From the IMG/VR virus record IMGVR_UViG_3300019378_000501: 64,000 nt of DNA; one strand, given 5' to 3'. Shown in pieces: positions 7,613 to 64,000 of this stretch (position 1 is its first letter; the number at the start of each line of letters is the position of its first letter). The notes beneath the pieces are model-generated. The model was not told the DNA's origin. It ran no database searches and saw nothing but the letters and a program-made list of their open reading frames with translations. Source of the stretch: an uncultured virus (IMG/VR IMGVR_UViG_3300019378_000501) (taxonomy: Duplodnaviria; Heunggongvirae; Uroviricota; Caudoviricetes). Position numbers and translations under genes: made by a program.

Positions 7613-9283
7613 TCATGACGGCAGCAGAATGCTGCTGAAAAGCACATTTTTATCGTTCTTTAGCAAATAATTGAGTCCACCCTTTTGAAGCAATGTCTTT
7701 TGGACATTGACACAAAAGGGTGGACTTAAATTTATGGTGGACACGAGCGCGCGGCATCCGAACTCGTTTTCCCCACTTAAAGCCTTGAAATCCGTAAACT
7801 TTATAACTGATTTATCGCCGCCAAAGTTGAAATTGATCGTCAATTCGTCGTCTGTGATGAAAATTGAGTTCACAAACACGTCAATAAGCCGCTGCTGACA
7901 CTTTCGGTCGGTGAAATCCATTTCCCGGAACTGTTCAAGGAAAAACTGAATATGATCTTTCTGTAATCTGAAACCGCCGTCGAGCTGAGTTTGTGCAATG
8001 GCAGCATTTAACGCCTGTTGTTGCCCGTCCAGTTCGGTCAGGCGGTTTTTTGTCATTTCAGTTAAGGGCATACCGGCTTCGATAGCCCGCATGAGATTAT
8101 TGATCGCTTTCTCCACCTCTGCGATTTGAGCTTTAAGGCTCGTCACCTTGTCTCTTTGCTGATCTTGTCGCAGATAGTATTCCCAAACGTTGTTGGTGAT
8201 GTACTGGATTACCTCGTCGTCCATAATCAACTCTTGAGTTTTGGTCAGCACAAAAGGTTCAAGCCAGTCTTGCCGGATCGCTTTGCGTGCGCAGGTGTTT
8301 CCTCGTTTGTGGTTGATGCACAGGTAGTAATTGTACTTGGCTCCTGTCTTACTTGTTCCGCTTTCTCCGACCATTTGCGCGCCGCAGGAACCGCAAAAAA
8401 GTTTGTTGGTGAGCAGATAGTCGGCCCTGTTCCATTTGGCAGCAGGGGCGCGTTGATTGATCGCCAACAGCTTTTGAACTTTGTAAAAAATCTCTTTGTC
8501 GACGATAGCCGGTACGCCATCTTCGATGCGGATCTCGCCGTTCTTGAAATCGTAGATGCCGATATACTTTTCGTTCTTGAGGATTGTACGCAGGCTGTTC
8601 TTGGTGTAGCGGTTGCCTTGACCCGTCCTCAGGCCCTCGGCATTAAGCTGGTCAATAATCTCTGTGATAGTCTGACCCTCTGCGTACATCGCATAGATCC
8701 GACGAACAAGTGGGGCCGTGTCGGGGTCAATGACAAATTGGTGGTCTTTGTCGAGTTTGTAGCCCAGTGGTACACGCCCGCCGGTGAACCGACACTTTTT
8801 TGCGTTCTCACGATTGCCGCGTCGAATATTCTGCGAGAGCTGCAAGCTGTAATACTCAGCCATACCCTCCAACACGCTTTCCAAAATGACGCTTTCGGGG
8901 CCTTCTCCCATGTTCTCAGCAACGTACTCCACCCGAACGCCGTGTTTTTTGCAATGGTATTTGTTGAACGTGATCTCCTCGCGGTTACGTCCAAAACGAT
9001 CAACTTTCCACACGATAATCACGGAGAATTGTTTTTTCGTGCAGTCGGAAAGCATCTGTTGAAATTCATCCCGGTTGTCGTTTCGGCCAGTCATTGCGCG
9101 GTCGATATACTCGTGGATGATCTGGTATCCGCGTGCCGCTGCGTAGGCGTGGGCTGCCGCGAGCTGCCCCTCGATGGACTGTTCACCTTGCTTGTGGGAG
9201 GAGAACCGTGCATAAACCACAGCCAATTCACCGGGGCCGTACGACTGTTGCCAAGCCGTTCCGTTGTATTTAATTTTTACCAT
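7613..9283 (-). CDS. Large serine recombinase (prophage integrase)
   Basis: YARFSS..Q catalytic motif, VWKVDRFGRN, recombinase domain, CGSCG...YYLC zinc ribbon, coiled coil. Confidence 0.93.
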   Translation of the reverse strand: MVKIKYNGTAWQQSYGPGELAVVYARFSSHKQGEQSIEGQLAAAHAYAAARGYQIIHEYIDRAMTGRNDNRDEFQQMLSDCTKKQFSVIIVWKVDRFGRNREEITFNKYHCKKHGVRVEYVAENMGEGPESVILESVLEGMAEYYSLQLSQNIRRGNRENAKKCRFTGGRVPLGYKLDKDHQFVIDPDTAPLVRRIYAMYAEGQTITEIIDQLNAEGLRTGQGNRYTKNSLRTILKNEKYIGIYDFKNGEIRIEDGVPAIVDKEIFYKVQKLLAINQRAPAAKWNRADYLLTNKLFCGSCGAQMVGESGTSKTGAKYNYYLCINHKRGNTCARKAIRQDWLEPFVLTKTQELIMDDEVIQYITNNVWEYYLRQDQQRDKVTSLKAQIAEVEKAINNLMRAIEAGMPLTEMTKNRLTELDGQQQALNAAIAQTQLDGGFRLQKDHIQFFLEQFREMDFTDRKCQQRLIDVFVNSIFITDDELTINFNFGGDKSVIKFTDFKALSGENEFGCRALVSTINLSPPFCVNVQKTLLQKGGLNYLLKNDKNVLFSSILLPS

Positions 9284-9824: not shown

Positions 9825-9844
9825 AGTAATCCTCTTTCCCGCCA

Positions 9845-10054
9845 GTCAAAAATATTTCACTACAATCAGTCAAAGAGTATTGACAAGTCAAAAGATTTAG
9901 GCTATTATAAGTGCGTAGCAGTCAAACGACTTTGACAAAAGCAAGCGCCGTCGCATTGTGGAAGGTGAGGACGGGCCGCAGTTTGTGGTACTGGCTTTTT
10001 GAATTGTATCACAATAGTCAAAAAGTTTCAACTGTTTAGGCAAATATTTTTGAC
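9845..10054 (+). promoter_or_regulatory. Lysis/lysogeny switch: sigmaA promoter plus GTCAAA-N4-TTTGAC operators
   Basis: TTGACA(9880)-17-TATTAT(9903); operator-like sites at 9845, 9869, 9887, 9921 (perfect), 10017, 10039. Confidence 0.8.
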
Positions 10055-10078
10055 TTCATAAGAAAGGAGGACAAACGC

Positions 10079-19752: not shown

Positions 19753-19766
19753 AAACTTTTTGCTCA

Positions 19767-19828
19767 GTCAAAGGCTCTTGACCGACAAGGGCCTTTGACC
19801 TATAATAAAGTAGTCAAAAGAAATTGAC
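19767..19828 (+). promoter_or_regulatory. Operator-covered promoter of the primase gene
   Basis: TTGACC(19778)-17-TATAAT(19801) with operator-like sites at 19767, 19784, 19813. Confidence 0.8.
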
Positions 19829-19868
19829 CGCCCCTGCTGGCACGAGCGAGGGGGGGGGAGGACAACCT

Positions 19869-22334: not shown

Positions 22335-22441
22335 CGCCGTTTTTGACAATGTTGACGTGTTGACAACAGAGGGCAACACGTCAACACCGTGTCAACAGTT
22401 AAGTAGTGACGGAAAAATCCTTGTGTATCAATGGTTTTTTC

Positions 22442-22562
22442 TATTTGTCAACACTTCAACACTTATTTCTAATAGACTTATAAAAAGTATAATATAGGCG
22501 TTATAGATCCCGCCTAAAACGCCTGAGCGCACATACGAGTACACGCGCGTGCGCGAGTGTTG
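22442..22562 (+). repeat. Origin-like non-coding element, copy 1
   Basis: Shares a 32-bp exact block and three further blocks with 53849-53967; preceded by TCAACA/TGTTGAC repeats. Confidence 0.8.
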
Positions 22563-29836: not shown

Positions 29837-29838
29837 TA

Positions 29839-29878
29839 GTCAAAAGGATTTGACTTTTGCTGTTTGCTTTGCTACAAT
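29839..29878 (+). promoter_or_regulatory. Moron promoter overlapped by a perfect operator
   Basis: GTCAAAaggaTTTGAC 29839-29854; TTGACT(29850)-17-TACAAT(29873). Confidence 0.75.
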
Positions 29879-46235: not shown

Positions 46236-46529
46236 ATGACCAGAGGAACAACCCCTGTAATTCTCGTAAAGCTCCCTCAGGAGATTGCGTTTGACACGCT
46301 CTACCTTACGTTCAAACAGGCGGGTAAAATCGTCGTGGAAAAGACGTTGGAGGACGTGTCGATTGACGGCGCGAACATCTACGCCCCGTTGACACAGGCC
46401 GAAACACTGGCTTTTAACGGATCTTCCGACGTGCTGATCCAGCTTCGCGGCAAGGTTGGCGAACAGGCTTACGCGTCCAACATTGTCCAGCGCACCGTCG
46501 ACGACATTTTGAAGGACGGTGAGATCTAA
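46236..46529 (+). CDS. BppU-like baseplate upper protein
   Basis: MTRGTTP, LTQAETL.F, ILKDGEI. Confidence 0.55.
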   Translation: MTRGTTPVILVKLPQEIAFDTLYLTFKQAGKIVVEKTLEDVSIDGANIYAPLTQAETLAFNGSSDVLIQLRGKVGEQAYASNIVQRTVDDILKDGEI

Positions 46530-46530
46530 T

Positions 46531-47394
46531 ATGGTTGAATTGACTGTCGAAATCAATGAAACCGAAACCCTTGAAATCAGTGTAAAAACGCTGCACTTTC
46601 TCGGTTTCACGGATCACGCCAAAATGACAAATCGGGATGCAACCGATCAGCACCCCATTGAGGCAATCACCGGGCTTGCGGAAAAGCTGAAAACACAGGA
46701 TGAAACTGCCACCCGGCAGGGAGAAACGCTTGCACAACAGGGCGAAACTCTGACTGCGCACGGCGAGGCGATCACAAAACACGGTGAAACCCTGTCGAGC
46801 CACGCCGAAGCCCTCTCCCAACACAGAGAGGTTATTACTGGACAGGGAGAAATCCTTGCCCAACATGGCAAGGTTTTAACTGCCCATTCTGAGGCACTGA
46901 CAGCCGTTCGTGAGGACGTTACTGCGCAGGGTGAAACCCTCTCCCAACACGGCGAAGCCCTTGTGCAGCAAAACGAGAAGGTCACTCAGCAGGGCGAAAC
47001 ACTCGCACAGCACGGGGAAGCGCTTTCCCAGCAGGGCGAGGAAATCAAAAATCATGGTGAGACACTTTCTCAGCACGGAGAAACCTTGACCGCGAACGGG
47101 GAGGCAATCACTAAACATGGTGAAGCCCTGTCCAAGCACGAAGAAACTCTTGCGCAACACGGGGAGACGATTTCTCAGCATACAGAGGGTATCAATGCCC
47201 ACGGTGAAACTCTCACCCAGCACGGGCAGACGCTTTCTCAGCACGGGGAAACCCTTACGCAGCATACAGAAAGCCTTAACGCCCACGGCGAAACCCTGAC
47301 CGCACACGGAGAAGCTCTTGAAAAGCTCAGTGCTTTTTCCGATAAAAAAATCGCGTCCGTTTCGGACGTACAGGAGGTTTTAACAAATGCCTGA
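46531..47394 (+). CDS. Heptad-repeat (HGETLSQ-type) fibre stalk protein
   Basis: DQHPIEAITGL motif then a long run of 7-aa repeats. Confidence 0.7.
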   Translation: MVELTVEINETETLEISVKTLHFLGFTDHAKMTNRDATDQHPIEAITGLAEKLKTQDETATRQGETLAQQGETLTAHGEAITKHGETLSSHAEALSQHREVITGQGEILAQHGKVLTAHSEALTAVREDVTAQGETLSQHGEALVQQNEKVTQQGETLAQHGEALSQQGEEIKNHGETLSQHGETLTANGEAITKHGEALSKHEETLAQHGETISQHTEGINAHGETLTQHGQTLSQHGETLTQHTESLNAHGETLTAHGEALEKLSAFSDKKIASVSDVQEVLTNA

Positions 47395-48688
47395 TATGAG
47401 CCAAGTCCTTGACCTTGCCGGTGTTGCTGCAATCCGTGATTGGGTTACGGCAAATTTCCTCAAGAAAACCGACGCTGAACAGATGATGGCATCTAAGATC
47501 CAGCTTACGTTCGGCCCGGATTTCGAGGGCAAAACCTACACAATCACCGGCGGCGCGAACGAAACCTATACTGGCACAGTTCCCGCAACCCTGATCGTGA
47601 CACAGACCATTAAGACCCTCAACACCGAATACGTTGTCACCTGCACCAATGAGGACGGTGTTTCCTATGAACGCTCCGTTACCATCGGCAGCTACTACGG
47701 CGTTTACCAGAGTGAGTTCGTTTCCTTCCGCGCTTATCTGGTTTGTACCGCAGACGCAGGCTGTACGGTTATCGCTACCAACGGCAGCAAGACCTACTCC
47801 GGCGTAGCCGACAGCAACGGCGAAGTTACCCTGAATATCGGCGCAACCGGCACTTATTCCGTTACCGCCTCCATGGGCGGCTCCACTACGGAGGCCGTTA
47901 CCGTGGAAGTCACCGAAGCAGGCGCAACTTACACCTGCAAGCTGCCCTCCCTGTCTGGCCCTGAGATCGTTTCTTGGGCTGACGGTACTGACGAACAGAT
48001 CGCAGCTATGGTCGCAGCTCTGGACGACGGTACGATCTCCATTGAGGATACCGGTTGGGCCGTGGGCGACGAGCGCGTTGTTACTCTGTCCGCTATGGCT
48101 GCAACCGGCGTTGGCGAATCCCACGCCGAACAGTCTGTAACTCTGGTGCTGATGGACAGCCAGCACTTCACGCTGACCGAAGCAACCGCTGGTGGCGACA
48201 CCAAGGATCACTTTGTCGTTGGTTTGAAGAACTCTCTGAACGAGAAGGGCTACATGAACAGTTCCAACACCAACAGCGGCTCTTGGAGCGGCTGCGCTCG
48301 TCGTACATGGTGTAACGACGTATTCCGTGCGGCAATCCCTGAAACGCTCCGGGGTTGCTTCAAGCAGTTCAAGGTTCCTACCGCTACGACCTACAATGGC
48401 AGCTCTGTCACTGAAACCGATGATTACTTTGCCCTGTTTGCAGAAAAAGAAATCTTCGGTTCTTGCACCTACTCCAACTCTACGGAGGCTGCGGCCCTGT
48501 CTCAGATCGAGTGGTATGCTACTGCGGCGAACCGTAAAAAGACCGTCAACGGGTCTGCCGACCTCTGGTGGGAGCGTTCTCCTCATTCCAGCACCAGCAG
48601 TTACTTCTGTATTGTCACCTCCGACGGCGCTGCCAATGTCGGCACCGCCAGCAGCACTATTGGCCTCGCGCCCTTCGGCTGTATCTAA
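47387..48688 (+). CDS. DGR target: tail/receptor-binding protein with C-terminal DUF6273/CLec-like variable domain
   Basis: Thr-rich beta domains; WWERSP...GLAPFGCI C-terminus encoded by VR. Confidence 0.88.
   Translation: MPDMSQVLDLAGVAAIRDWVTANFLKKTDAEQMMASKIQLTFGPDFEGKTYTITGGANETYTGTVPATLIVTQTIKTLNTEYVVTCTNEDGVSYERSVTIGSYYGVYQSEFVSFRAYLVCTADAGCTVIATNGSKTYSGVADSNGEVTLNIGATGTYSVTASMGGSTTEAVTVEVTEAGATYTCKLPSLSGPEIVSWADGTDEQIAAMVAALDDGTISIEDTGWAVGDERVVTLSAMAATGVGESHAEQSVTLVLMDSQHFTLTEATAGGDTKDHFVVGLKNSLNEKGYMNSSNTNSGSWSGCARRTWCNDVFRAAIPETLRGCFKQFKVPTATTYNGSSVTETDDYFALFAEKEIFGSCTYSNSTEAAALSQIEWYATAANRKKTVNGSADLWWERSPHSSTSSYFCIVTSDGAANVGTASSTIGLAPFGCI
48551..48685 (+). repeat. DGR variable repeat (VR)
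   Basis: 135-bp ungapped match to TR, 18 mismatches, all opposite TR adenines. Confidence 0.97.
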
Positions 48689-48699
48689 AATCTCAAAAT

Positions 48700-48720
48700 C
48701 CGCGCCCCTTGTGGGCGCGG
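48700..48720 (+). promoter_or_regulatory. DGR target-recognition GC hairpin downstream of VR/IMH
   Basis: CCGCGCCC-cttgt-GGGCGCGG, 11 bp after target stop; absent after TR. Confidence 0.8.
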
Positions 48721-49237: not shown

Positions 49238-49372
49238 GGGTCTGCCAACAACTGGTGGGAGCGTTCTCCTAATTCCAGCAACAGCAATAACTTCTGTAAT
49301 GTCAACTCCGACGGCACTGCCAATAACAACAACGCCAGCAACACTAATGGCCTCGCGCCCTTCGGATGTATC
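49238..49372 (+). repeat. DGR template repeat (TR)
   Basis: Non-coding, 14 AAY triplets in VR frame. Confidence 0.97.
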
Positions 49373-49562
49373 GTGAAAACGTCAGAAAAGTAGCGACAGT
49401 GAAATTAGACGGGATACATATTATCTTTTTACCCCTTTTTATGATACAGGAGGATGTGACCGCGCCGCCGATGAACGGCGGTGAATTAACACCGTGGCTC
49501 AGTCAGGCGCTTGCACCGGGCTGATACTGCATACGCAGGCACGGAATATGGGGATTTTTCGT

Positions 49563-50600
49563 ATGACTTTTGAAGAAGTCTTTTCAGTAGAACATCTGTT
49601 AATTTGCGCGCGAGAATGTCTACGCGGCGTAACGTGGAAACAATCTGCACAGATGTTTGAAGTAAATCTGCTGCAATGGGTGGCAACGCTTCACAAGGAG
49701 CTTATGCAAGGCACTTACCGCTCACGAGGCTTTCACAACTTCACAATTTGCGAACGCGGAAAGCGACGTGAAATTTCATCTGTCCACATCTCCGAACGAT
49801 GTGTACAGAAATGCCTTGTGAAATTCGCATTGAAGCCCACCATTGTTCCACGCCTGATCTATGATAACGCCGCAACCATAGAGGGACGCGGAACGGAATT
49901 TGCAGTAAAACGACTGCGGGAGCATCTGCGCTACCATTTGGCGCGTTACGGGAGAACCGGCGGGATCTTGACTATCGATTACCACAATTATTTCGGCAGC
50001 ATAGATCACGACCGGCTCTTGGAGATGTACCGCGGGATAATTGACGACGATCGGGTATATGACCTGATCGTCTATTTTATTCGCTGTTTTCCCGGTGACA
50101 AGGGCCTCGGCTTAGGATCGGAGATCTCGCAAATCAGCGCGGTTTTCTACCCTAACAGCCTTGACCACTATATCAAGGACGTGCTTATGGTGCATGGTTA
50201 CGCTCGATACATGGACGACAGTTACATTATCAGCGACGACCTTGATAAGCTACGGGAATACCGGGACATCATCACCCGAAAATCTGCGGAATTGGGGCTT
50301 GAACTCAATGCCAAAGTGACGCAGATAACGAAATTCGACGGCGGCAGCTTTGTCTACTTGAAGAAACGCGTTTTTATCACCGAAGATCATCGGATCGTGA
50401 TGCGGCTCGTTCCGAAAAACATCACGCAAAGACGCAGAGGTATCAAGAAACAAAGGAAAATGCTTGCGGACGGTAAGATTTCGCCCGAATCTATGCGGCA
50501 ATCATTCAATTCTTGGCGTGGATACGCCGAAAAATACGATAGTTATACATCAATCAAACGTCTGGAAACGCTGATGGACACCGTGACCGGCGGGCTATAA
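49563..50600 (+). CDS. DGR reverse transcriptase
   Basis: ERGKRREI, ERCVQ, DYHNYFGSIDH, GLGLGSEISQ, YARYMDD; start uncertain (49494-49563). Confidence 0.93.
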   Translation: MTFEEVFSVEHLLICARECLRGVTWKQSAQMFEVNLLQWVATLHKELMQGTYRSRGFHNFTICERGKRREISSVHISERCVQKCLVKFALKPTIVPRLIYDNAATIEGRGTEFAVKRLREHLRYHLARYGRTGGILTIDYHNYFGSIDHDRLLEMYRGIIDDDRVYDLIVYFIRCFPGDKGLGLGSEISQISAVFYPNSLDHYIKDVLMVHGYARYMDDSYIISDDLDKLREYRDIITRKSAELGLELNAKVTQITKFDGGSFVYLKKRVFITEDHRIVMRLVPKNITQRRRGIKKQRKMLADGKISPESMRQSFNSWRGYAEKYDSYTSIKRLETLMDTVTGGL

Positions 50601-53250: not shown

Positions 53251-53640
53251 ATGATCCCTGAAATCATCATCGAAACCGTCGTGCAGATCCTCGCCTGCCT
53301 GCTTGTCACCCTGATCGGCGTGCTGGGCGCTTGGCTGACCGCCAAGATCGGCAAAAAGGCAGAACTGACCAACATCGGTCTGGCTACCAATGAGGTTGTC
53401 AGTGCCGCGCAGCTCACCGTTCTTGAGTTGCAGCAGACCGTTGTTGAACAGTGGAAGGCTGCAAGTGCTGACGGCAAGCTGTCCGAAGATGAAATTAAAG
53501 AGTTGGGTGTTATGCTGATTCAGAAAACTATGGAAAAGATGTCTGCATCTGCGAATAACCTGCTTGTCTCTGCGGGCGTGGACATCACCGCCATTATCAA
53601 GGGCGCGGGTGAGGCCATGATCCAGAGCATGAAGAAGTAA
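53251..53640 (+). CDS. Holin
   Basis: N-terminal TM, QQTVV..WK....DGKL; after lysin. Confidence 0.65.
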   Translation: MIPEIIIETVVQILACLLVTLIGVLGAWLTAKIGKKAELTNIGLATNEVVSAAQLTVLELQQTVVEQWKAASADGKLSEDEIKELGVMLIQKTMEKMSASANNLLVSAGVDITAIIKGAGEAMIQSMKK

Positions 53641-53653
53641 TATCCGCACCATT

Positions 53654-53688
53654 GGGCGCACGGGCTTCGGCCTGTGCGCCCTTTTTTT
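53654..53688 (+). terminator. Late operon terminator
   Basis: GGGCGCACGGGC-ttcg-GCCTGTGCGCCC-T7. Confidence 0.9.
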
Positions 53689-53848
53689 ATGCCCAAAATG
53701 TCACCACATGGTTGTCCACACCGCATTTTTAATCTGTTGCAAACTGTTGTTGTGTTGACAAACGCGAGAAACAGATTTTTAAGGTGGTGACGCGAGTGTT
53801 GCCCTAAAGTGACGACAGAAAAAGCCTTGCGGTTCTTAGGTTTTTCTA

Positions 53849-53967
53849 TATTTGTCAACACTTCAACACTTATTTCTAATTGACTTATAAAAAGTAGTAT
53901 TTAGGCAGTATACGCAACGCCTAAAACGCCTGAGCGCACACATCTGTACGCGCGTGCGCGAGTGTTG
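53849..53967 (+). repeat. Origin-like non-coding element, copy 2
   Basis: Homologous to 22442-22562. Confidence 0.8.
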
Positions 53968-53998
53968 TTGCCCTGTAATTTTGGCTTGCATAAATCCA

Positions 53999-54073
53999 GT
54001 CAAATTTTTTTGACAAAACTATTGACAAGTCAAAAGTCTTTTGCTAATATAATGATAGTCAAAAACATTTGAC
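53999..54073 (+). promoter_or_regulatory. Operator-covered promoter of right-arm operon
   Basis: Perfect operators at 53999 and 54058, partial at 54029; TTGACA(54022)-17-TAATAT. Confidence 0.8.
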
Positions 54074-54113
54074 TGAAACGACAATCGAAAAACGACATAC
54101 GGAGGAATTAACC

Positions 54114-54329
54114 ATGGAAAAAACCAATAAGGGCCTGTACATCATCAAGAAGTCCGAAAGCACCGTCAAGGGCCGCAACGTAGTCCTTACCCGCAAGACC
54201 AATTTGGCAGGCGACGTTCTGCATGGCGTGGTTCTGGAAAACACCCGGAACGGTCGTCACCAGAAAATCGGAACCTTCGCCGGTATTCTCCCCGCGTGGA
54301 ACGTCTACAAGGCACTCGTGAAAAAATAA
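54114..54329 (+). CDS. Hypothetical early protein
   Basis: GGAGG RBS; first gene after promoter. Confidence 0.65.
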   Translation: MEKTNKGLYIIKKSESTVKGRNVVLTRKTNLAGDVLHGVVLENTRNGRHQKIGTFAGILPAWNVYKALVKK

Positions 54330-54390
54330 GCCGAAACGGGCAACAGCCCGTAGCCGGGAACCGCCCCACCTGGCCTGACGATGGCAGGGC
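54330..54390 (+). ncRNA. Type II hammerhead ribozyme
   Basis: GCC-GAAA-CGGGC/GCCCG-UA-GCCGGG/CCUGGC-CUGACGA-U-GGC, plus loop GCCC/3' GGGC pseudoknot. Confidence 0.85.
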
Positions 54391-54422
54391 ATCACGACAA
54401 ACGACAATCGGAGGTAACGATT

Positions 54423-54626
54423 ATGTTTCATTACAAAGTTAAATATTCTTGGCTGACCGGGATCGGCAGCGAGCGGGTTTATGAGTACGACATCTACATT
54501 GCAGAGAATTGTCAAGAGGCTGCCGACCTTTGCCGTAACGAATACGGTCATTTGCCCGGTATGCGCGTCGAGTTCATCTGGAAAAGCAATTACGGCTCTT
54601 GGCTGGCCGTCAACGCATGGAGGTGA
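54423..54626 (+). CDS. Hypothetical protein
   Basis: GGAGGT RBS. Confidence 0.6.
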   Translation: MFHYKVKYSWLTGIGSERVYEYDIYIAENCQEAADLCRNEYGHLPGMRVEFIWKSNYGSWLAVNAWR

Positions 54627-54631
54627 GCGCT

Positions 54632-55024
54632 ATGAAGGTAGTAAAAAACGACCGCGAGCTGCGGGTCGCTTATGAAATCCTTACCCTCCTGACCGATGGG
54701 AGCCACACGTTCGCCAACCCTGAGAGGCTGTCCCAGTGCATCATCGAAACAAAGCGCGCAATGCGCCGGTACACTCACCGCGAAACCGGCTACGACCGCC
54801 GGATCATCAAGGACGACGGCATGGATGGTTATCTCAGCCTTGAGCGGCTGCCCGACGACATTCGGGATCTGGAAGAAGCCAACCGTTTCTTTGAGCAGTT
54901 TATGACCTACCATTACCGGCCCTCTGCCTACGATTGCACCGGGCAGGCTATGACAAATTGGTTCAAAGTGTTCCCCCGAAACGGCGGGTTCTACGCCTAC
55001 CATTCTGTCAGCTTCGACGTTTAA
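54632..55024 (+). CDS. Hypothetical protein
   Basis: GGAGGT RBS; YDCTGQ motif. Confidence 0.6.
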   Translation: MKVVKNDRELRVAYEILTLLTDGSHTFANPERLSQCIIETKRAMRRYTHRETGYDRRIIKDDGMDGYLSLERLPDDIRDLEEANRFFEQFMTYHYRPSAYDCTGQAMTNWFKVFPRNGGFYAYHSVSFDV

Positions 55025-55429
55025 GGAGGCGGCAAGGATGTTCGAGAAACGCTTTTGCCCCTACTGCGGCGCTCCGTTATCTGACGGCTGTGATTGCGCC
55101 GCAGAGTTGGAGCGGTACGAAAACGAGCTGATCGAGGAACTGGAAGATCGCCAGTGCATGACAGCTTGGCAGCAGGACTTGATTGACCTGCGCAGGTTTG
55201 AGCGATAAGGAGGTTTTGATATGGCTACCTACAAAGTGACGCGTGAAGGTTATCGCGCAACGATCCTCACCCGCGAGGGTGAAACCCGCGTTTCCCGGCT
55301 CTATCCCCGGTGCGACCGTGAGCTTTTGGAGCAGGCGTGTGAACGCATGAGTAAGATCGGCGAAGCCGTTTCCTATTCCATCGATTGGGTTAGGGTTCAG
55401 ACAGATGCAGGGTAAGGGAGGACAACCAC

Positions 55430-55684
55430 ATGAATGAGTTTAATCAGGGCTACGAAATCATCGCAGCCGAAACCTATCAGATCACCGAGAAAGGCAGAGA
55501 GTGCCGGATCGTGTTAGGCCGCATGGAAACCAAGTACGGCGCGATGTTTGTCACTTGGGAGAGTACCACCGGCGCTATCGGCGGCGACGGATACGCGGAC
55601 TACTTTTGGGGCCATTACCTCGACAACGAGAAAGCGGCTCGCGCCGACTATCACCGCCGACTGCTTGAGAAGTATGAGAGCTGA
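55430..55684 (+). CDS. Hypothetical protein
   Basis: FVTWE...YFWGHY...A..DY..R. Confidence 0.6.
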   Translation: MNEFNQGYEIIAAETYQITEKGRECRIVLGRMETKYGAMFVTWESTTGAIGGDGYADYFWGHYLDNEKAARADYHRRLLEKYES

Positions 55685-55858
55685 GAAAGGAGCTGTCACC
55701 ATGTACGAAATCGTGTACGACTACGACGACGGGTGGAGCGAATCCCGAAACAACGTCGAAACGTTCGAGGGTTCGTGGTCTGAGTTGCAAGACCACATCA
55801 AGAAGATGCGCCGCAACGGTTGCTACAACATTTACGCGACAAGCGTTAAGGAGGGCTT

Positions 55859-56266
55859 ATGAAACGACTGACTTACTGGAACGGTAAGAAATGGATCTTG
55901 CCGCAGGGATCTTGGCGAGAGATCGCCGACCGACTGGCCGCCTATGAAAATACCGGCTTGGAGCCTGACGAGATCGCTCAGTTACAGGCCCACAGTCCTG
56001 TTGAGAACGATTTTCCAGTCGGCGGCGACATCTTTACCGCAGTAATCGTAGCCCGTGAGGGCGGCGGCTATGTCCCCTACATCGACCCGGTAAACTGCTG
56101 TGCTTTCCTCCGTGCGTCGGAGATCCGGGAGCTGGCAGACAATCCCGATGTTATCAACCAGCGCGGCGCAAACCATCTTGTTATTGAGGTTTACCCGGAT
56201 CGTTGGCACGTCGCTCAGGTGGGCGGTTATACCCCGGACAGCGGTATGTATACCAAACTTTACTGA
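55859..56266 (+). CDS. Hypothetical protein
   Basis: RLAAYENTGLEP motif. Confidence 0.6.
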   Translation: MKRLTYWNGKKWILPQGSWREIADRLAAYENTGLEPDEIAQLQAHSPVENDFPVGGDIFTAVIVAREGGGYVPYIDPVNCCAFLRASEIRELADNPDVINQRGANHLVIEVYPDRWHVAQVGGYTPDSGMYTKLY

Positions 56267-56281
56267 TCGGAGGATTTGAAT

Positions 56282-57199
56282 ATGAACTATTACGAGATCA
56301 ACGAAGATGCTGCCAAACGCGCTAAGGACGCGAACAGCTTTTTCGACTACGTTCCCGGTTCCGCAACTCACCACTACCGTGCGGAAGTGGATAGGGCTGC
56401 TGAGATCGCAGCCAAGCAGAAAGAGCGTGTCGACCCTATGTACCACGCCAAGATCGACGGTCTGTTGGAGAAGTTCGCCCGCGAGCTGGCCGAAGTTATC
56501 AATCATCGAAACGAGATTGACGCACGCGTACCCTCTGTGATGGTCGCCGGTGGCAGCAATTTCCCTGTCGCGGCTAAGAATCGGCAGAACGCAGCTCGTG
56601 AGCGTAACGACGCGAGGTATGCAGAGGTTCAGGAGATTTTGCGGAAGATCCAGAGCGTCGGCATGGGCGGCATTATGAGCGACGATAAAAACGCCGTCGC
56701 CAAGCTGACCGCGAAGTTGGAAAAGCTCGAAAAGCATCAGGCACTTATGCGAGCCGCCAATGCTGCGGTTCGCATGAAGGATGTTGAGAAGGGCGACGCT
56801 AAGTTAACGGAGTTGGGTTACACCGCAGAGGAAATCAATCAGCTCCGCACTCCCGATTTCTGCGGTCGTCTCGGATACCCTGATTATGAGATGAAGAATA
56901 ACAACGCGAACATTCGCCGGATTAAGGAGCGTATTGCCGCTTTGGAGAAAGAGGCGCAGCGCGCCGCCGAGAATGTCGACGCGGAGCCGGTCAAGGGCGA
57001 CGGCTATGAGTTGATTGAAAACGCCGAGATTGGGCGTATTCAGTTTGTTTTCGACGGTAAGCCCGACGAGTATACCCGCGCGCTGTTGAAGTCTAACGGT
57101 TTCCGTTGGTCGCCCTCTCAAGGCGCTTGGCAACGGATGCTGAACGATAACGGCAGATATGCGGCCCAGCGGATTATCGAAAAACTGAACGCAGAATGA
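56282..57199 (+). CDS. Conserved phage/ICE protein (DUF3560-like)
   Basis: PSVMVAGGSNFP, NNNANIRR, FDGKP...LK.NGFRWSP...AWQR. Confidence 0.65.
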   Translation: MNYYEINEDAAKRAKDANSFFDYVPGSATHHYRAEVDRAAEIAAKQKERVDPMYHAKIDGLLEKFARELAEVINHRNEIDARVPSVMVAGGSNFPVAAKNRQNAARERNDARYAEVQEILRKIQSVGMGGIMSDDKNAVAKLTAKLEKLEKHQALMRAANAAVRMKDVEKGDAKLTELGYTAEEINQLRTPDFCGRLGYPDYEMKNNNANIRRIKERIAALEKEAQRAAENVDAEPVKGDGYELIENAEIGRIQFVFDGKPDEYTRALLKSNGFRWSPSQGAWQRMLNDNGRYAAQRIIEKLNAE

Positions 57200-57825
57200 C
57201 GGATAAGCTACACGAAAGACGGAGGCGACAAGCGTGAACAACGTTTATGAAGGTTTTGCAATCATCGGTATTTACCTCGCACCGCTTATGGCGGCCCTCG
57301 CTATCGGCGGTATCTTTTCAGATTTCATCTTGCCCCGGTGTCCACGCTTGCTCTGTTTTCTTGAGTGGGTGTTCGGGATCGACTTGGGGCCATGAGAAAG
57401 GAGCTTCAATGTTCATCAAAGCGACCATCAAAGTTACCAAGGAGAACACGATCTGGATTAACCTCGATAACGTCACAATGGTAACTCCCTGCATCAACGG
57501 TACGACATTGCATTTCACCGGCGGCGGGCAGGTCAACGTTGTCGAGGATTTCGACACGATCCGTGAGCGGATCACGTTCGCAGAAGCAATGAGAAAGGTG
57601 TGACAACTGTGGGATATTTCGATACCCTTGCAAAGTTCTTAGGGATGTTCCCTAACTTTCTCGAATCGGTGGCGTTTTGGTCGCCGGTTCGAGACAAAAA
57701 TACTATTCGTGTCGAGCTGAAAAGCGGTCAAAAGCTGCTGTTTACCTACTGGAATGACCGGGAGTGGAGCCTGACCGCCGTAAACGGCGCAGTTCGGAAA
57801 GTTTAACCGTAAGGAGGAATGACCA

Positions 57826-58308
57826 ATGCTTACCGAGATCACCGGCGACCTGTTGACGGTTCGCGCCGGAATTATCTGTCACCAAGTAAACTACTACGGT
57901 GTCATGGGTGGCGGTGTCGCCGCTGCCATTGCTGATAAGATTCTGTCAGCCGAACAATATGCCGCCTACTCCATGTACTGCAAGCAGGCTGGCCGTACAG
58001 CCTTAGGCAGCGTTCAGTTCTTAGGATGCGCCCCCGGTCTGGTCGTCGCCAATATGTTCTGTCAGGACGAAGCTCTTGCCCAGAGAGGCGGCAACCTTTG
58101 CATCACTGACTACGACCTTATGTACCAATGTTTCAAGCGCGTGCGCAATATGGCACAGATCCAAAAGATGCGGGTTTACATCCCGCGCAATATTGGCTGC
58201 GGCATCGCCGGTGGTAACTGGGATACCGTGAAGCAGATCATGGAGGACGTTTTCGGGAAAGGCCCTGTGGACGCTTTCATCGTAGGGCGGGAGGTTGGAA
58301 ATGGCTAA
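57826..58308 (+). CDS. Macro domain protein
   Basis: GDLL, ICHQVN..GVMGGGVA.AI, ANMFCQ, IGCGIAGG.W. Confidence 0.85.
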   Translation: MLTEITGDLLTVRAGIICHQVNYYGVMGGGVAAAIADKILSAEQYAAYSMYCKQAGRTALGSVQFLGCAPGLVVANMFCQDEALAQRGGNLCITDYDLMYQCFKRVRNMAQIQKMRVYIPRNIGCGIAGGNWDTVKQIMEDVFGKGPVDAFIVGREVGNG

Positions 58309-58589
58309 AATCGTCGAATGTGTTTCCGGCATTGATGGTAACGGCTATCAGTATATGTTGGGTTGGCGAGCGCCACTGTGGTTGGATGCACACGGCCTGA
58401 GAAATGGGCCAGCATGGGCGCTCCGACTGCACCACGATAAGAACCGTTCCGAACTGGAAACCTTTATTTGGGTTGGTGGCACACCTCGCAACGGAAAAAC
58501 TGTCGCGGTGTTCAAAGACGAAATCATTACCGAGGGCGAACTTCCGGCACTACTGAAAAAGCATAACATCCCGTTCGTGGAGGTCGAAG

Positions 58590-58943
58590 ATGGCAAGGCG
58601 TAAGAGCTACACGAACGCGGATCAGATCCGCAGCATGACCGACGATCAGTTGGCAAAAGCACTTTTAGATGCGAACGATACCGGCGTTTCCATTCCTTTC
58701 TGTCAAGAGCTGCCGGAGTGTGAGGCGCTGTTGGACACCGGGATTATCCCGGATGAAAAGTGTCTACAGTGCGTCAAGGAGTGGCTGAAACGGCCTGCAT
58801 TTACGAGGGGGGGGAGTATCGCATGGATAATAAACTGGGTAAGGGTGTTCGTTTTGAACGTATCCGTCGAATCACCGGCTATCTGGTCGGAACCTTGGAT
58901 CGCTGGAATAATGCCAAGAAAGCTGAGGAACGTGACCGTGTAA
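58590..58943 (+). CDS. Hypothetical protein (3' end depends on G8 tract)
   Basis: TNAD.IRSMTD..LA motif, Cys cluster. Confidence 0.5.
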   Translation: MARRKSYTNADQIRSMTDDQLAKALLDANDTGVSIPFCQELPECEALLDTGIIPDEKCLQCVKEWLKRPAFTRGGSIAWIINWVRVFVLNVSVESPAIWSEPWIAGIMPRKLRNVTV

Positions 58944-58999
58944 AGCACGGCATTGTTATCAGGAAGGAGGAAGAAAATCATGCCCAACATGAAGTCTGA
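58823..58999 (+). CDS. Stand-alone NrdD C-terminal (glycyl radical) domain
   Basis: FERIRRITGYLVGTLDRWNNAKKAEERDRVKH. Confidence 0.75.
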   Translation: MDNKLGKGVRFERIRRITGYLVGTLDRWNNAKKAEERDRVKHGIVIRKEEENHAQHEV

Positions 59000-59415
59000 T
59001 GAATACTGGCGCGGTAAACCCGGAGCCAAGTACGGTATCTGGAACGATGTCAAAAAGGAGTTCCAGTTCGGTATTTGCGAGGACACGCCCGCGTTGGCAG
59101 AAGCTCGCCTCAGACAACGGATTGGCCGCGACAGCCACAAGTGGAGGTTCCAAGTTCGACGGTTGACCGGCGAGGCGCTACACCGAGCGATGGAGGCGGC
59201 GAATGAAAAGTGAACCGCAGCAGATCCCCGCAGCGAAAAGTTGTAAATGCGGTGAGCGCCCGGTTTACTTTACGTTTGACGATCCCGCCGGTGTTATTTT
59301 CCACCGCATGATGTGTCCGCGTTGCGGAAAGAAGGTAACGAGTTTATCAAAGATTAAAGCGATTTTTCGTTGGAACGAATACATAACGGAGGTGATGTCG
59401 TGGTTGGTGAAGAAA

Positions 59416-59612
59416 TGATTGAGCGCGAGGACAAGCGCCGTCGTCATGCGTTGACATTGGCGCAGGTCGAATGGGCTTACGAGAAATGGTGTTTGGGTTA
59501 TACCTTGGCTCAGATTGCCGAAGCCCTCCACGTCTCGTCCCGCACGGTATCGCGTGCGTTTGAATTGTTGGGCAAGCCACGAGTACGGCCCAAGCTGATT
59601 TATGGAGGCTAA
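59416..59612 (+). CDS. Small HTH protein
   Basis: YTLAQIAEALHVSSRTVSR; start approximate. Confidence 0.55.
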
Positions 59613-59615
59613 ATT

Positions 59616-59999
59616 ATGAGAGGCGTTGTATTTACAACCGATAACCAGATGTACGTCAAGGACTTCGGACGGCCCTTGTATGAAACCATCGGCAAAGAGG
59701 TCGACGGTTGGATCGAAGTCGTTCACCCTGTCGGGCTTAAAAGAGCGCCCAGCAAACTTTGTTTCGTCTGCAATGAAGAAGGTCTGTTGCGCGGTCTGCC
59801 TTTGAACGCGTTCGGCAGTGTGCTTTACGGCACGCAGCACCACGGACACCCTATTGTCGGTAACATCGTGTTTATGCGTGAGGGCATTGTGAACGGCGAG
59901 CCTGATTTTGTCGAGCTGACCGACACTGATATTCAGTGGATTAAAAAGTTGGCTCGTGACGTGTCCGGCGACCTGATCCGGGAAGTTGAAGCGAGGTGA
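59616..59999 (+). CDS. DUF3846-like protein
   Basis: VDGWIEVV, CNEEGLL.GLP.N, IVGNIVF. Confidence 0.7.
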   Translation: MRGVVFTTDNQMYVKDFGRPLYETIGKEVDGWIEVVHPVGLKRAPSKLCFVCNEEGLLRGLPLNAFGSVLYGTQHHGHPIVGNIVFMREGIVNGEPDFVELTDTDIQWIKKLARDVSGDLIREVEAR

Positions 60000-60005
60000 G
60001 ATCTC

Positions 60006-60329
60006 ATGCCTGAAATCGAATTGCAGCGATGCCCCAACTGCGGCGGCCCTGCGAAACTCCACACGAAACACGGAAAGTTCCGCTACGAGTGCGACGGCGA
60101 CTGTTGGACTTCCACCGGCCTGTATAGCGCGCAGGAGGGGGCCGCCCGTGAATGGAACCGACTGAAAGGGCGGGTGCCTGAACGGGATTGTCTGATGTGC
60201 AAGCACTCCATGTCCTGTGATTCTCCTGACGGCCCACAGTTGGTCTGCTTTTGTTGTGCTGGACACGAAGGTGAGGAAACGTATGTTGATGAACCCTGTG
60301 AGAATTATTCGGGAGCATGGTTCTTATGA
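60006..60329 (+). CDS. Lar-like (restriction alleviation) Zn-finger protein
   Basis: EL..CP.CGG.A...EC...C...A...WNR. Confidence 0.5.
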   Translation: MPEIELQRCPNCGGPAKLHTKHGKFRYECDGDCWTSTGLYSAQEGAAREWNRLKGRVPERDCLMCKHSMSCDSPDGPQLVCFCCAGHEGEETYVDEPCENYSGAWFL

Positions 60330-60440
60330 GCGACACCTAAAATCGAAAATCCGTAAGTTTAATCGCGTATTTTGAGAAAAAATCTCAAATTCGCGTAGTT
60401 AAAAACGAAAATACGCAAATTAGGAGGTATCTAAGAAACA

Positions 60441-60770
60441 ATGGGACTTAGCATTACGATCACTCGCCGGAAAGGGAAAAAGTGTCCTCATTGTGGTGAG
60501 CTGGTGGGGTATGAGGTGCTTGCGGATCTGATGGGTGGTGGCCGAAACTGGTATCCGATTTTAGAGCGTTTCGGCTACTATGTACCCTATGAGTCGCGCA
60601 CCGAAGAAAACGACTGGTATGGAAAAGACATGGTGTTGACCGCCGAACAAGCCGATGAACTGTACCGTTATTCTCAGCACCACGAGCTTTATTGTCAGGG
60701 CGGTCTTAGGTCGGTGATCGCTCAGGCGTTGCATGAGGGCGACCAGATCGTAATTAACGCGGATTGGTAG
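60441..60770 (+). CDS. Hypothetical protein
   Basis: AGGAGGT RBS; CPHCG. Confidence 0.6.
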   Translation: MGLSITITRRKGKKCPHCGELVGYEVLADLMGGGRNWYPILERFGYYVPYESRTEENDWYGKDMVLTAEQADELYRYSQHHELYCQGGLRSVIAQALHEGDQIVINADW

Positions 60771-61553
60771 GAGGTAAAACATGGCAGCACCAAATAACTC
60801 CCGATGCCCCCGATGTAAAGCAAGGCTCCGGGTCAGATCCGGGCAGTATGTAAGCTATACCTGCGGACGCTGCGGCTATTCCAAAACAGAGGAGCCGGAT
60901 AATATGACCAAAGAGTTTCTTTGGGGGCCGCTGTTCGAGACGAGGAGGATGAAACGTGGCAAGTGAAAAACCCTCCGTTCATATCGGAGATACTTTGTTC
61001 ATCATCGGAAAGTACAGTTATTCGCCGGACGAGGCCCCGTCAATCATAGAGGTGCAAGTGGCGTACGATCTCCATAAGCGGCATTTCGCCTATCCTAAAT
61101 CGGGTCGTGGCACATTCAGCTTTGCAACCGGCGACATGGGAAAAACGGTATTTACGAACCGCAAGGACGCAGAGCGCGTTTTAAGGAGGATTTTAGATGC
61201 GTCCGATTGATGGCAATGGTAGAAAGTACAAGCTGGAGGAATACGACCTCAAGGCTCTCCGGGAGGCACGGCAGCGAATTATGGTCGTTTACAACTACCA
61301 TTACGGCGCTCCCCGTGCGTCTGGTACGATCAAGCGGATCGAAACCATCCTTGCAAAAATCGATCGTTTGATAAAAGAAAGTGAGGATTAACCCGATGGC
61401 AAACAGATTCTATGCAAAAGGCGAGCTGAAAGACGAAAAAATCGTTGTAGCGCTCAAACGTGCTGCCAACGATTATGAAAACGGCGAGATTGCAGAGGTG
61501 CATGACCTGTTGTTGGAAATCGCCGCAGCTATCGAAGAATGGGAGGACGCGTA

Positions 61554-61922
61554 GTGATTTTTGAAAACGAATCAATACGAAGTCGTTTTACAGCGGCTTT
61601 CCCGAAGTTTTATATCAATCACAATTTGGAGGCGATTGTCCATCCGCGCAGAAATTCTTATTTCCTGCTGTCCGATGTGCGTACCGAAAAGGATCTGATC
61701 GCCAAAATCCTTGAATGGCTTTCCAGAGAGGCGGCCAAATCTATTACTAAAGAATCTCAAAAATATCACCTTGACGGGATCAATGCTTTTCTTGGTACTG
61801 ATTTTTCACAAGAGGACATGATGCAAATTTACACCTATCTTGGAAACAGGTGTAACCATGATAAGACGCTACACTTTATTGATAGCGGGTATGACCTGTC
61901 CGTATTGACGAAGGAGGCCTAA
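61554..61922 (+). CDS. Hypothetical phage protein
   Basis: KILEWLSR, IYTYLGN.CNH motif; start uncertain. Confidence 0.55.
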   Translation: MIFENESIRSRFTAAFPKFYINHNLEAIVHPRRNSYFLLSDVRTEKDLIAKILEWLSREAAKSITKESQKYHLDGINAFLGTDFSQEDMMQIYTYLGNRCNHDKTLHFIDSGYDLSVLTKEA

Positions 61923-61923
61923 C

Positions 61924-62253
61924 ATGGCTAAAGAAAAAACCGCAAAAGAGATCGTGCAGGCAGCGGCTCAGGAGCATCGCCGCAAGGCCAATGAGAACTG
62001 GGAGTATTACCAGACCACGGGCGTAGGTCGCTACGACACCGCCTATTACAAACACGATTCCATCGCTACGGCGCTGGAAAAGTATCTGGCTTCCGAACAG
62101 ATCCGGGAGGATGCGTCTGCGTTCAAAAACATCCTTGCGAATTTTGCAGCAGACGCAGCGGCTACCAAGGGCCTGCCCGATGCTGACCGCCTGAAAGCGC
62201 TGGACAAGCTGGCGCGGGAGCTGGTGTGGCGTGCAAAGATGGAGGGGATCTGA
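61924..62253 (+). CDS. Hypothetical protein
   Basis: AAGGAGG RBS. Confidence 0.6.
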   Translation: MAKEKTAKEIVQAAAQEHRRKANENWEYYQTTGVGRYDTAYYKHDSIATALEKYLASEQIREDASAFKNILANFAADAAATKGLPDADRLKALDKLARELVWRAKMEGI

Positions 62254-62671
62254 TGGAATGTAGAAACTGTCCGAACCTCAAGCATTGTCAAAGGCAGTGT
62301 ATGGATCTGCCCGCCGGGAAAACTTGCGGCGATTGTCGCTATGTGAATTGGTGTATGGTGGCTTACGGGGTCAAGCCCGAAAACACGTCCTGCGACTTTG
62401 AGCCGATTCGATTCAAACCGAAGGAGATGTAAAAAATAATGTTCGCATCGAAAAGAAAGCTGAGAGAAGAAAACACCCGGCTCAAATACCGGGTGGCTGA
62501 TCTGGAAGAACGGCTCTGCCCGTGTGAGAGCCACGCGTGGAAACACGTCGGCACTGACCTTGAGGGCGGCACAGGCAGGGGCGACGAACTGTCCATCTAT
62601 AACTACAGATGTCGTCGTTGCGGTAAAATGCTGCGGTCGATCCAGCCTTTCTTGGATCGGGAGGTTTCAGA

Positions 62672-63111
62672 ATGAATACAGCAGTAATGTTCAGCAGTAA
62701 GACCGACGATTGGGCTACGCCGCAGGAGTTTTTCGACGGCTTGAACCGGGAGTTCGGTTTCACCCTCGATCCTTGCGCCGACGACCGCAATCACAAATGC
62801 GCGAAGTATTACACCCGCGCGCAGGACGGTCTTTCGCAGGACTGGGGGGGGAACGTGTTTTCTGTAACCCGCCGTATGGCAAAGAAATTGGAGACTGGGT
62901 TCGCAAGTCTCTGGAAGAAAGCGCGAAACCGAACACCCTCGTTGTTATGCTTATTCCGGCAAGAACCGACACAAAGTATTTTCACGAGTACATATACGGA
63001 AAAGCGGAGATCCGATTTATCCGTGGTCGTCTCAAATTCGGCGGGCAAAAGAACGCGGCCCCGTTCCCGTCGATGGTCGTGATCTTTGGGGCCGGGAGAG
63101 CTACACAATGA
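62672..63111 (+). pseudogene. Phage N6-adenine methyltransferase (Dam-like), frameshifted at G8
   Basis: Frame A: DDWATPQ..F..L..EFGFTLDPCA...DGL.QDW; frame B: VFCNPPYG...LIPARTDT..FH...RGRLKF. Confidence 0.8.
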
Positions 63112-63365
63112 GCAGATACAAGATCCGTAGCGATGTAGAGTTTTACCCGCACACGAAGAAAAGGAAAAAACCCATCGCCGGTTCAACCGTTGCGACAAGC
63201 CTTTTCCTTGTGGCGGTACATGAGGATCACCCATCGTTCACCATCGCCCAGCTCAGGGAGCTGCTGACAGACAAGACGAAATACATCTTGGAGCCGGATG
63301 CAGTTGCCGTTCTGGACGCGTATATCAAAATTGGCGAAAGCAATATTATTCCAAATTGGAGGTAA
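63108..63365 (+). CDS. Hypothetical protein
   Basis: ATGA-coupled ORF. Confidence 0.55.
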   Translation: MSRYKIRSDVEFYPHTKKRKKPIAGSTVATSLFLVAVHEDHPSFTIAQLRELLTDKTKYILEPDAVAVLDAYIKIGESNIIPNWR

Positions 63366-63369
63366 AATT

Positions 63370-64000
63370 ATGTTTGAAGTAATCGAGAAAGCAACCGGCA
63401 AGCGCCTGAACGTCTACGCGGTAGACGGCGACCATTTTGTTGTCGGCACGGACGACGGCTTTGAGTTCCAGCCCATGGCCCTGTTCGCGCCTGTCACGGC
63501 CCTCAGCGGGGTCGAAGCGCCTACTAAGGTGCAGGATTGCCCCTGTACTGTTTCCGTCACTGAGAGCCGTTCTGCGGATCTGGACGCGGCCCTCACCGAT
63601 CTTGCGTCCGGCAAGGTTCCTGTTGTGTTGGGCAACACCGTTTCCACTCGCCTGCTGGACGGTACGGAAGTGGATCTCGTCGTGACTGACTTCGATGAAA
63701 AGACGATCCGGCTTGAGAGCCGTGATTGCTTGGGGGTCAACACCTCTGCGAATGACCTCAAGGCGTATCTGGACAGAGTGTACGCGCTGCTGCCTGAGGC
63801 CCTGAAAAAGCGCATCGTGGAAGTTGAGCGCGTCCATCTGGACTATAAGGGTAAGAAGTTTACCGACCGCTGTAAACTGTTCGTGCCTGCGGCCTCTGAG
63901 GTATTTCCTCCTGACGATTGCTACGGTGACAAGGGCCTGTACGAGCAGATGGAGTGGTACAAGGACGTACATAACCGTATGCGGGCTGACAGCAAGCGGG
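63370..64000 (+). CDS. DUF6273-like protein, truncated by window end
   Basis: Own translation, open to the end: MFEVIEK...LLPEALKKRI...KLFVPAASEVF...EQMEWYKDVHNRMRADSKR; GGAGGT RBS. Confidence 0.75.
   Translation, partial: MFEVIEKATGKRLNVYAVDGDHFVVGTDDGFEFQPMALFAPVTALSGVEAPTKVQDCPCTVSVTESRSADLDAALTDLASGKVPVVLGNTVSTRLLDGTEVDLVVTDFDEKTIRLESRDCLGVNTSANDLKAYLDRVYALLPEALKKRIVEVERVHLDYKGKKFTDRCKLFVPAASEVFPPDDCYGDKGLYEQMEWYKDVHNRMRADSKR

Follow-up and report, generated by a model that had tools for sequence, protein, structure and literature searches.

The experimentally understood phage DGR, that of BPP-1, alters a tail fibre; its cassette has the order mtd-avd-TR-brt, paralleled in the DGR described here with an ORF in the avd position that is a candidate accessory gene, its single target is the trimeric tip of the tail fibre, and to our knowledge it has no target in an early operon. 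The present DGR was found in a stretch of 64,000 nt, called the window throughout, and resembles that of BPP-1 in its adenine-specific change and in a hairpin downstream of VR, which is required for efficient homing in BPP-1 (PMC3240598). This and the other papers cited were available in part, and what is said of them refers to those parts. Non-adjacent phage DGR targets within 50 kb have been described (PMC5758913), and distal second targets have been reported repeatedly, with authors divided between a "receptor-binding" and a "counter-defence" reading.

One such target has a homologue in the window. The product of orf43 of Roseburia phage Shimadzu (LR596903.1) is 37% identical over 162 aa (E 1e-30) to the second target of the present DGR (target 2). 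Like target 2, orf43 carries a distal VR2 that matches the phage's own TR and is accompanied by a hairpin; it lies among methyltransferase and recombination genes, as target 2 lies near a methyltransferase gene, and the att site of Shimadzu, like the candidate one of the window phage, is inside a serine integrase gene. Unlike target 2, orf43 encodes 209 aa without the N-terminal beta domain, the Shimadzu TR is of another family (PVCF-type end), Shimadzu is a myovirus, and orf43 belongs to the main early/replication operon, whereas target 2 sits in a separate operon before att. Both Shimadzu VRs are mutated in virion DNA, where 2% of the reads at the VRs carry DGR-type changes, and VR2 is mutated in 47% of mouse virome reads and in 5/5 ultravirulent isolates, its alleles being under weaker selection than those of VR1; the available text gives orf43 no function (bioRxiv 10.1101/575076).

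In Quimbyvirus, too, a second CLec target stands well away from the structural genes, beside methyltransferases, and is interpreted as non-structural and conflict-related (PMC8008677); Quimbyvirus differs from the window phage in its Bacteroides host, frameshifted RT and opposite strand, and the likeness noted here is one of layout. FP_Toutatis (bioRxiv 10.1101/2024.10.15.618418), nd4/nd12 (PMC10743442), Lelie and CP11 (PMC11792537) resemble the window phage in having two DUF6273 targets served by one TR, one of them small with the VR at the C-terminus of the domain; in FP_Toutatis the second target lies 17.5 kb from TR (bioRxiv 10.1101/2024.10.15.618418). Toutatis, nd4 and nd12 pair the small target with an Ig-bearing tentaclin or Hoc-like protein, whereas the partner in the window phage is a tail-module protein with a C-terminal DUF6273, and the small targets of these phages are supposed to be receptor-binding (bioRxiv 10.1101/2024.10.15.618418, PMC10743442). 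Four induced gut prophages also have a second VR distal from RT and near DNA methyltransferase genes (PMC12629997), a likeness to target 2 in position. One DGR with a tail-region target and a distal small target is thus already known from other gut phages; the additions made here are the operator evidence and the separate lineage of target 2. In the literature searched, outside which most subscription papers lie, we found no distal DGR target with an assigned function, with proteomic data from virions or with a link to a repressor.

The cassette and its two targets are laid out as follows; positions are those of the window, except where they refer to the IMG/VR contig L001, which continues it.

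47387..48688, + strand: target 1, 433 aa, last in the tail module, C-terminal DUF6273
48551..48685, + strand: VR1, by homology to TR
48700..48720, + strand: GC hairpin after VR1, 8-bp stem and 5-nt loop
48740..49204, + strand: accessory gene (Avd position), 154 aa, labelled from position and size alone
49238..49372, + strand: template repeat (TR), common to both VRs
49494..50600, + strand: DGR reverse transcriptase (RT), YMDD motif, uninterrupted (RVT_1, 49.7 bits)
63370..64000, + strand: target 2, second DGR target gene, its 5' 210 codons, with ATG and upstream GGAGG
L001 10656-10765 (25-134 nt past the window end), + strand: VR2, 110 nt, codons 220-255 of target 2
L001 10786-10804, + strand: GC hairpin after VR2, 7-bp stem and 5-nt loop, 20 nt downstream of VR2

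The RT is 368 aa long without internal stops, target 1 passes the Pfam DUF6273 cut-off at 50.6 bits, and the ORF at the Avd position has no Pfam or PHROG match. VR1 is identical to TR at 98/98 non-A positions and changed at 18/37 adenines. Directly upstream of target 1, a 291-aa ORF (46519-47394) contains a long heptad-like repeat and is a candidate coiled-coil stalk.

An earlier note on this DNA had claimed an ORF running off the window end, and this was confirmed: it starts with an ATG preceded by GGAGG at 63370, is still open at the edge after 210 codons and contains the motifs that had been quoted. The parallel drawn there with a segment of target 1 held for the motifs and failed for similarity beyond chance: the truncated protein matched target 1 by BLASTP with 21% identity over 76 aa (E=0.02), and the local score of 38 compares with 33+/-4.8 (maximum 55) in 500 shuffles. 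In-window pairwise similarity, being at chance level by BLASTP and shuffles, was rejected as proof of a second target. The continuation was read on L001, which shows 0 mismatches to window positions 53370-64000 over 10,631 nt and extends 571 nt beyond them; it completes target 2 as a protein of 259 aa with its stop at L001 10780, 149 nt past the window end. Among contigs compared from 4 of 21 listed runs, the junction at the window end is also spanned by a contig of run X3 (record 14, 10,284 nt, 4 differences overall), which comes from another run and is not flagged as a possible source of the window; an exact-pattern scan of viral contigs for further copies of the strain recovered no contig besides L001. 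The complete protein scores above the Pfam DUF6273 cut-off (30.6 bits versus 23.5), and the truncated 210-aa form has no Pfam match.

VR2 begins 24 nt (8 codons) beyond 64000 on L001, in agreement with the expectation in the earlier note that a VR would follow within a few codons, and its mismatches to TR are restricted to adenines: against TR 49263-49372 all 78/78 non-A positions are identical and 13/32 adenines are changed (P=1.3e-8 that all 13 changes fall on A). VR2 is without the first 25 nt of TR and lies 14.7 kb away from TR. Within one genome VR1 and VR2 differ at 17/110 positions, all at TR adenines. The GC-rich hairpin that had been sought downstream is present after VR2, with a 17-nt core identical to that of the VR1 hairpin and found nowhere else in the window; such a hairpin follows both VRs and is absent after TR. 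Contig G002 carries TR, VR1 and VR2 together, and the window contains no further TR-like site, the best other non-A match being 48/98. At 49366 a TR adenine is replaced by C in both VRs and also in the G001 allele; because this change is common to both VRs and a like A-to-C change near the 3' end recurs in relatives, it is probably a fixed IMH-type difference.

Natural alleles bear out the activity of the DGR at both sites. Over 20 kb, record G001 departs from the window at 20 positions; VR1 accounts for 18, every one of them a TR adenine. All 12/12 members of the target 2 cluster at 90% carry VR, each a different allele, and the mean p-distance of the cluster is 0.31 in VR versus 0.022 outside; among these 12 alleles 18/19 A-variable codons vary and 0/17 other codons do, with 7/432 VR residues unreachable from the window TR by A changes. 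The corresponding figures for target 1 (seven members) are 17/22 A-variable codons, 0/23 others and 0/315 unreachable residues. Judged from sequence and population alleles together, one TR serving two genes, as the earlier note had supposed, is established; target 2 is almost certainly a DGR target, and on these grounds it is a real and active second one.

Several alleles show additional patterns. In P0001/P0068/P0069/P0077 and in P0079/P0081/P0082 the 3' part of VR is common and the differences are confined to a 5' patch or absent, which suggests partial replacement or recombination between alleles. P0060, an allele of target 1, and P0001, an allele of target 2, agree in a stretch of varied residues where the common VR part begins; this hints at one cDNA or a gene conversion reaching both sites, or at chance. 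Apparent frame shifts occur inside VR2 in the close homologues L017 and L018 (75%) and near its end in L053, and are possibly homing-derived indels or assembly errors.

A profile scan found 43 viral loci with a target 2 homologue. The RT search took in 33/43 of these (3 had already been handled and 7 were short contigs) and 3 others, covering 34 records, and gave an RT match in 18/34, including 14/16 near-complete virus records; the remaining 2/16 have the homologue and no RT match. In 17/18 RT-bearing records the 3' end of the homologue shows a match of 63-87 non-A positions to the TR of that same record; taken together, these matches have differences at 299/535 adenines versus 17/1,268 other bases, the 17 arising by construction from a search that tolerated one non-A mismatch per segment. 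Clustered at 70% identity, the 17 homologues fall into 8 groups, and 9 of the 17 are near-copies. Record G035 (L061), the one without a TR match, has a weak RT match (E 5.6e-4). Compared with the window's TR, the longest run is 10-13 in every one of the 18 RT-bearing records. The homologues of G003, G004 and Shimadzu orf43 likewise match their own TRs. A GC stem lies near the stop of the homologue at 39/45 related loci versus 8/900 random windows. Labelled neighbours of the homologues include replication, partition, methyltransferase, PAPS-reductase, antirepressor, kinase, ADP-ribosylglycohydrolase, integrase and endolysin genes, and no head or tail family is among the matches listed for 31 hand-picked neighbour ORFs at 11 related loci.

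The earlier note had called target 2 a paralog of target 1. The two do belong to the same domain family (DUF6273), and to that extent the term stands; it misleads in that the core of target 2 groups with the second targets of other phages, far from the tail target. A tree of the non-VR core was built with midpoint rooting from 32/35 rows; in the three left out (P0067 and the G003 and G004 tail targets) the trimming motif was not found. It separates 25 second-target proteins, including Shimadzu orf43, from 7 target 1 relatives at 100/100, and because of this split target 2 is, as far as the tree goes, an old separate lineage and not a recent copy of target 1; a recent duplication of target 1 was rejected on the same tree. 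VR end types are mixed within the second-target lineage (P0024 stands beside P0011 at 99/88), and this switching between close relatives suggests re-templating after a change of cassette. P0063, P0064 and P0066, short proteins (256-261 aa) of the target 1 lineage with almost no N-terminal region, would be a second kind of small DUF6273 target.

Target 2 consists of an all-beta N-terminal domain (residues 1-41), a flexible linker (44-55) and a DUF6273/C-type-lectin domain (~70-259). The model (48-row alignment; pLDDT 90.5, pTM 0.72) has VR2 at the C-type lectin fold's C-terminus, on the last strands of the globular domain. The best structural match is 9qa6, the N-terminal part of a Thomasclavelia IgA protease (Z 15.2, rmsd 2.3, 162 aligned), whose matched region is DUF6273 (PMC12402451). 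Legionella Lcl (Z 9.0, rmsd 4.0, 123 aligned), the DGR target TvpA (2y3c; Z 8.3, rmsd 3.9, 131 aligned) and many C-type lectins are also among the matches. The solved DUF6273/CLec matches are, we assume, mostly surface or secreted proteins. Foldseek against the PDB gave none at E<=0.001 (best 9qa6, 2.9e-3), and PHROG gave one weak unlabelled family. Mtd is not among the 50 matches listed, which carries no weight against kinship with Mtd. For the N-terminal domain, SH3-like matches at Z 5.5 and ESM Atlas matches <0.9 are leads only; N-termini are swapped among the homologues, several of which are without this part, and PF04014, which we take to be an AbrB/MazE-type DNA-binding domain, occurs on 1/67 homologue matches. 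A crude hydropathy scan of target 2 detected no hydrophobic export signal or membrane segment, the maximal 19-residue hydropathy being 1.15 overall and 0.45 in the first 40 aa. Two named architectures were considered and rejected: a tentaclin has an N-terminal CLec followed by Ig, and in target 2 the CLec is C-terminal and ends the protein with nothing after it in sequence or model; a Mtd-like tail-fibre tip is at odds with a 41-residue beta domain alone before the CLec and a gene 15 kb from the tail module.

The genetic setting of target 2 is given by the following features.

53654..53681 (L001 285-312), + strand: terminator-like 12-bp hairpin ending the lysis genes, before the target-2 operon
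53998..54074, + strand: operon head, promoter-like TTGACA-17-TAATAT (54022-54050) with three 18-bp operator-like palindromes
54114..64000, + strand: ~30 small co-oriented genes with target 2 penultimate; phosphatase-like, Lar-like, DNA methyltransferase, many without label
9844..10055, no strand: region between the CI-like repressor gene (9357-9824, - strand) and the cro-position gene, with six palindrome copies
7731..7756, no strand: candidate attL core, 26 nt, inside the 3' end of the serine integrase gene
L001 11177-11202: candidate attR, the same 26 nt, at the end of the contig

Between 54114 and a point 454 nt beyond the window end, 30 RBS-led ORFs fill 89% of the sequence. Among 15 of its ORFs scanned with PHROG besides target 2, the labels are phosphatase, Lar-like, DNA methyltransferase and "primase", with 0 structural labels; a methyltransferase gene lies two genes upstream of target 2, which is outside the structural module. 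The palindrome pattern was read off the site at 54057 and scanned with up to 3 mismatches, giving 14 sites in the window versus 2.75+/-1.51 in shuffles, with 0/100 shuffles reaching 14. Six are between the CI-like and cro-position genes, three at the promoter of the target-2 operon, two at 19766-19829, one, a perfect copy, at 29838 in the head module, and two are stragglers; with the copy at 29838, the motif extends beyond early operons. The promoters of cI/cro and of the target-2 operon have 17 identical nt around their -35 boxes. In G004, palindrome clusters occur at the repressor region and at the head of a small-gene operon that includes a methyltransferase-like ORF and ends in the homologue; record G003 begins 249 nt before its homologue, and the comparison of operon heads thus rests on G004. 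The palindromes and the -35 context common with the cI/cro region lend real support to the early type that had been ascribed to this operon, and because its promoter carries the palindromes of the cI/cro switch, early, repressor-controlled expression is likely.

Other sequence elements deserve mention. The palindrome pair at 19766-19829 flanks a promoter-like site before an 836-aa ORF at 19824, and the perfect palindrome (29838-29855) lies between the large terminase and a 274-aa ORF at 29910. An imperfect, AT-rich intergenic repeat of 154 nt (83%) occurs at 22408-22562 and 53814-53967; the second copy directly precedes the target-2 operon promoter, and the repeat may be origin- or promoter-like. 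A Dam-like methyltransferase (62672-63111), two genes upstream of target 2, changes frame at an eight-G run (~62844-62851), with the NPPY motif in the second frame and the same arrangement in L001; a phase-variable tract or a shared assembly error is possible. The endolysin gene contains a 159-nt direct repeat (84%; 52358-52516 and 52610-52768), probably repeated cell-wall-binding domains.

From the position of the att cores, the prophage appears to span from 7731-7756 to the identical core at the end of L001. The candidate core lies 39-47 codons before the stop of the integrase gene (7613-9283), so that prophage and excised forms would differ in the integrase C-terminus, as is likewise described for Shimadzu (bioRxiv 10.1101/575076). 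Between the VR2 hairpin and att is a 74-aa ORF (L001 10861-11085, 230-454 nt past the window end); it falls in 242 nt that are skipped in X10 and X19 contigs.

We propose that the DGR would copy TR RNA into adenine-mutated cDNA, by a mutagenesis presumed to be RT-dependent as in BPP-1, and that this cDNA would be written into two sites, VR1 in the tail-module protein and VR2 in target 2, each homing site being marked by the common 3' sequence and the GC hairpin. Target 2 would be transcribed from the repressor-controlled promoter at ~54050, silent in the lysogen and switched on early in the lytic cycle, presumably through binding of CI and with read-through over 9 kb. Because it has no export signal, action in the cytoplasm is most likely: target 2 would be a free binding module whose lectin-fold scaffold, with ~19 randomisable residues, may bind a host protein and inhibit or redirect it; the most plausible candidate is a factor of defence or regulation that differs between host strains. 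Its gene context and the missing hydrophobic export signal lead us to infer that target 2 is intracellular and non-structural, and we lean moderately towards its being an intracellular binder of a host factor. The perfect palindrome in the head module, the weaker selection on Shimadzu VR2 and the surface roles of the solved matches speak against such a binder.

Alternatively, target 2 could be a virion accessory, an early-made receptor-binding or decoration protein attached via its small N-terminal domain. CLec domains of DGR targets are usually adhesins, and the separate N-terminal beta domain with its flexible linker could provide an anchor. A receptor-binding role is also what has been supposed for the small DUF6273 targets of other phages (PMC10743442, bioRxiv 10.1101/2024.10.15.618418). 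We consider this unlikely for target 2: the gene is outside the structural module, preceded by a terminator and by a promoter with operators on its flanks; the N-terminal part, not conserved in the family and missing in several homologues, is a poor fit for an anchor; and no Mtd-type beta-prism/beta-sandwich or Ig domain is found in the model.

It has also to be considered that an early-made target 2 acts after release, as a soluble decoy or receptor-masking protein at lysis, or inhibits a protein of a co-infecting phage. VR1 and VR2 come from one template, so both proteins sample the same surface chemistry, and without an export signal any role outside the cell needs lysis; but VR1 and VR2 differ at 17/110 positions, so the same ligand is not required, the scaffolds of the two targets are only ~21% identical, and the early timing better suits an intracellular role, which makes action after release rather improbable. 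Nor does it seem probable that VR2 is a weakly selected passenger or store of diversity, with the function of the gene constant and its tip mutated through the homing signals. Such a passenger would accord with Shimadzu VR2 alleles that differ among isolates, none being dominant in one of two viromes (bioRxiv 10.1101/575076), and with related records that have no RT match; against it, homing signals and a match to the resident TR have been retained in ~11 sequence groups whose TRs differ, and the switching of VR end type between close relatives means that targeting was regained after template changes. That target 2 is only a domain homologue, the window's assembly continuing otherwise and without VR2, could appeal to a window that ends before VR2 and to chance-level similarity within it, and is scarcely credible given the identity of L001 over 10,631 nt, the contig of another run bridging the junction and the VR in 12/12 cluster members.

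Intracellular binding of a host factor is thus the reading we carry further. It is tentatively suggested that an old lineage of cytoplasmic lectin-fold binders under repressor control persists in temperate phages of gut Clostridia and is templated anew by the DGR cassette that happens to be resident, as an antibody-like library that may act in the first minutes of lytic growth by neutralising strain-variable host defence or regulatory proteins. To the reports of distal second targets the present case adds a clue of timing, the operator-like sites that the operon has in common with the lysis-lysogeny switch and that occur also in a 38%-identical relative, as well as sets of natural alleles and a homologue in a cultured phage for which in vivo data exist. 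If target 2 is an intracellular binder, phages would hypermutate counter-defence proteins besides adsorption proteins.
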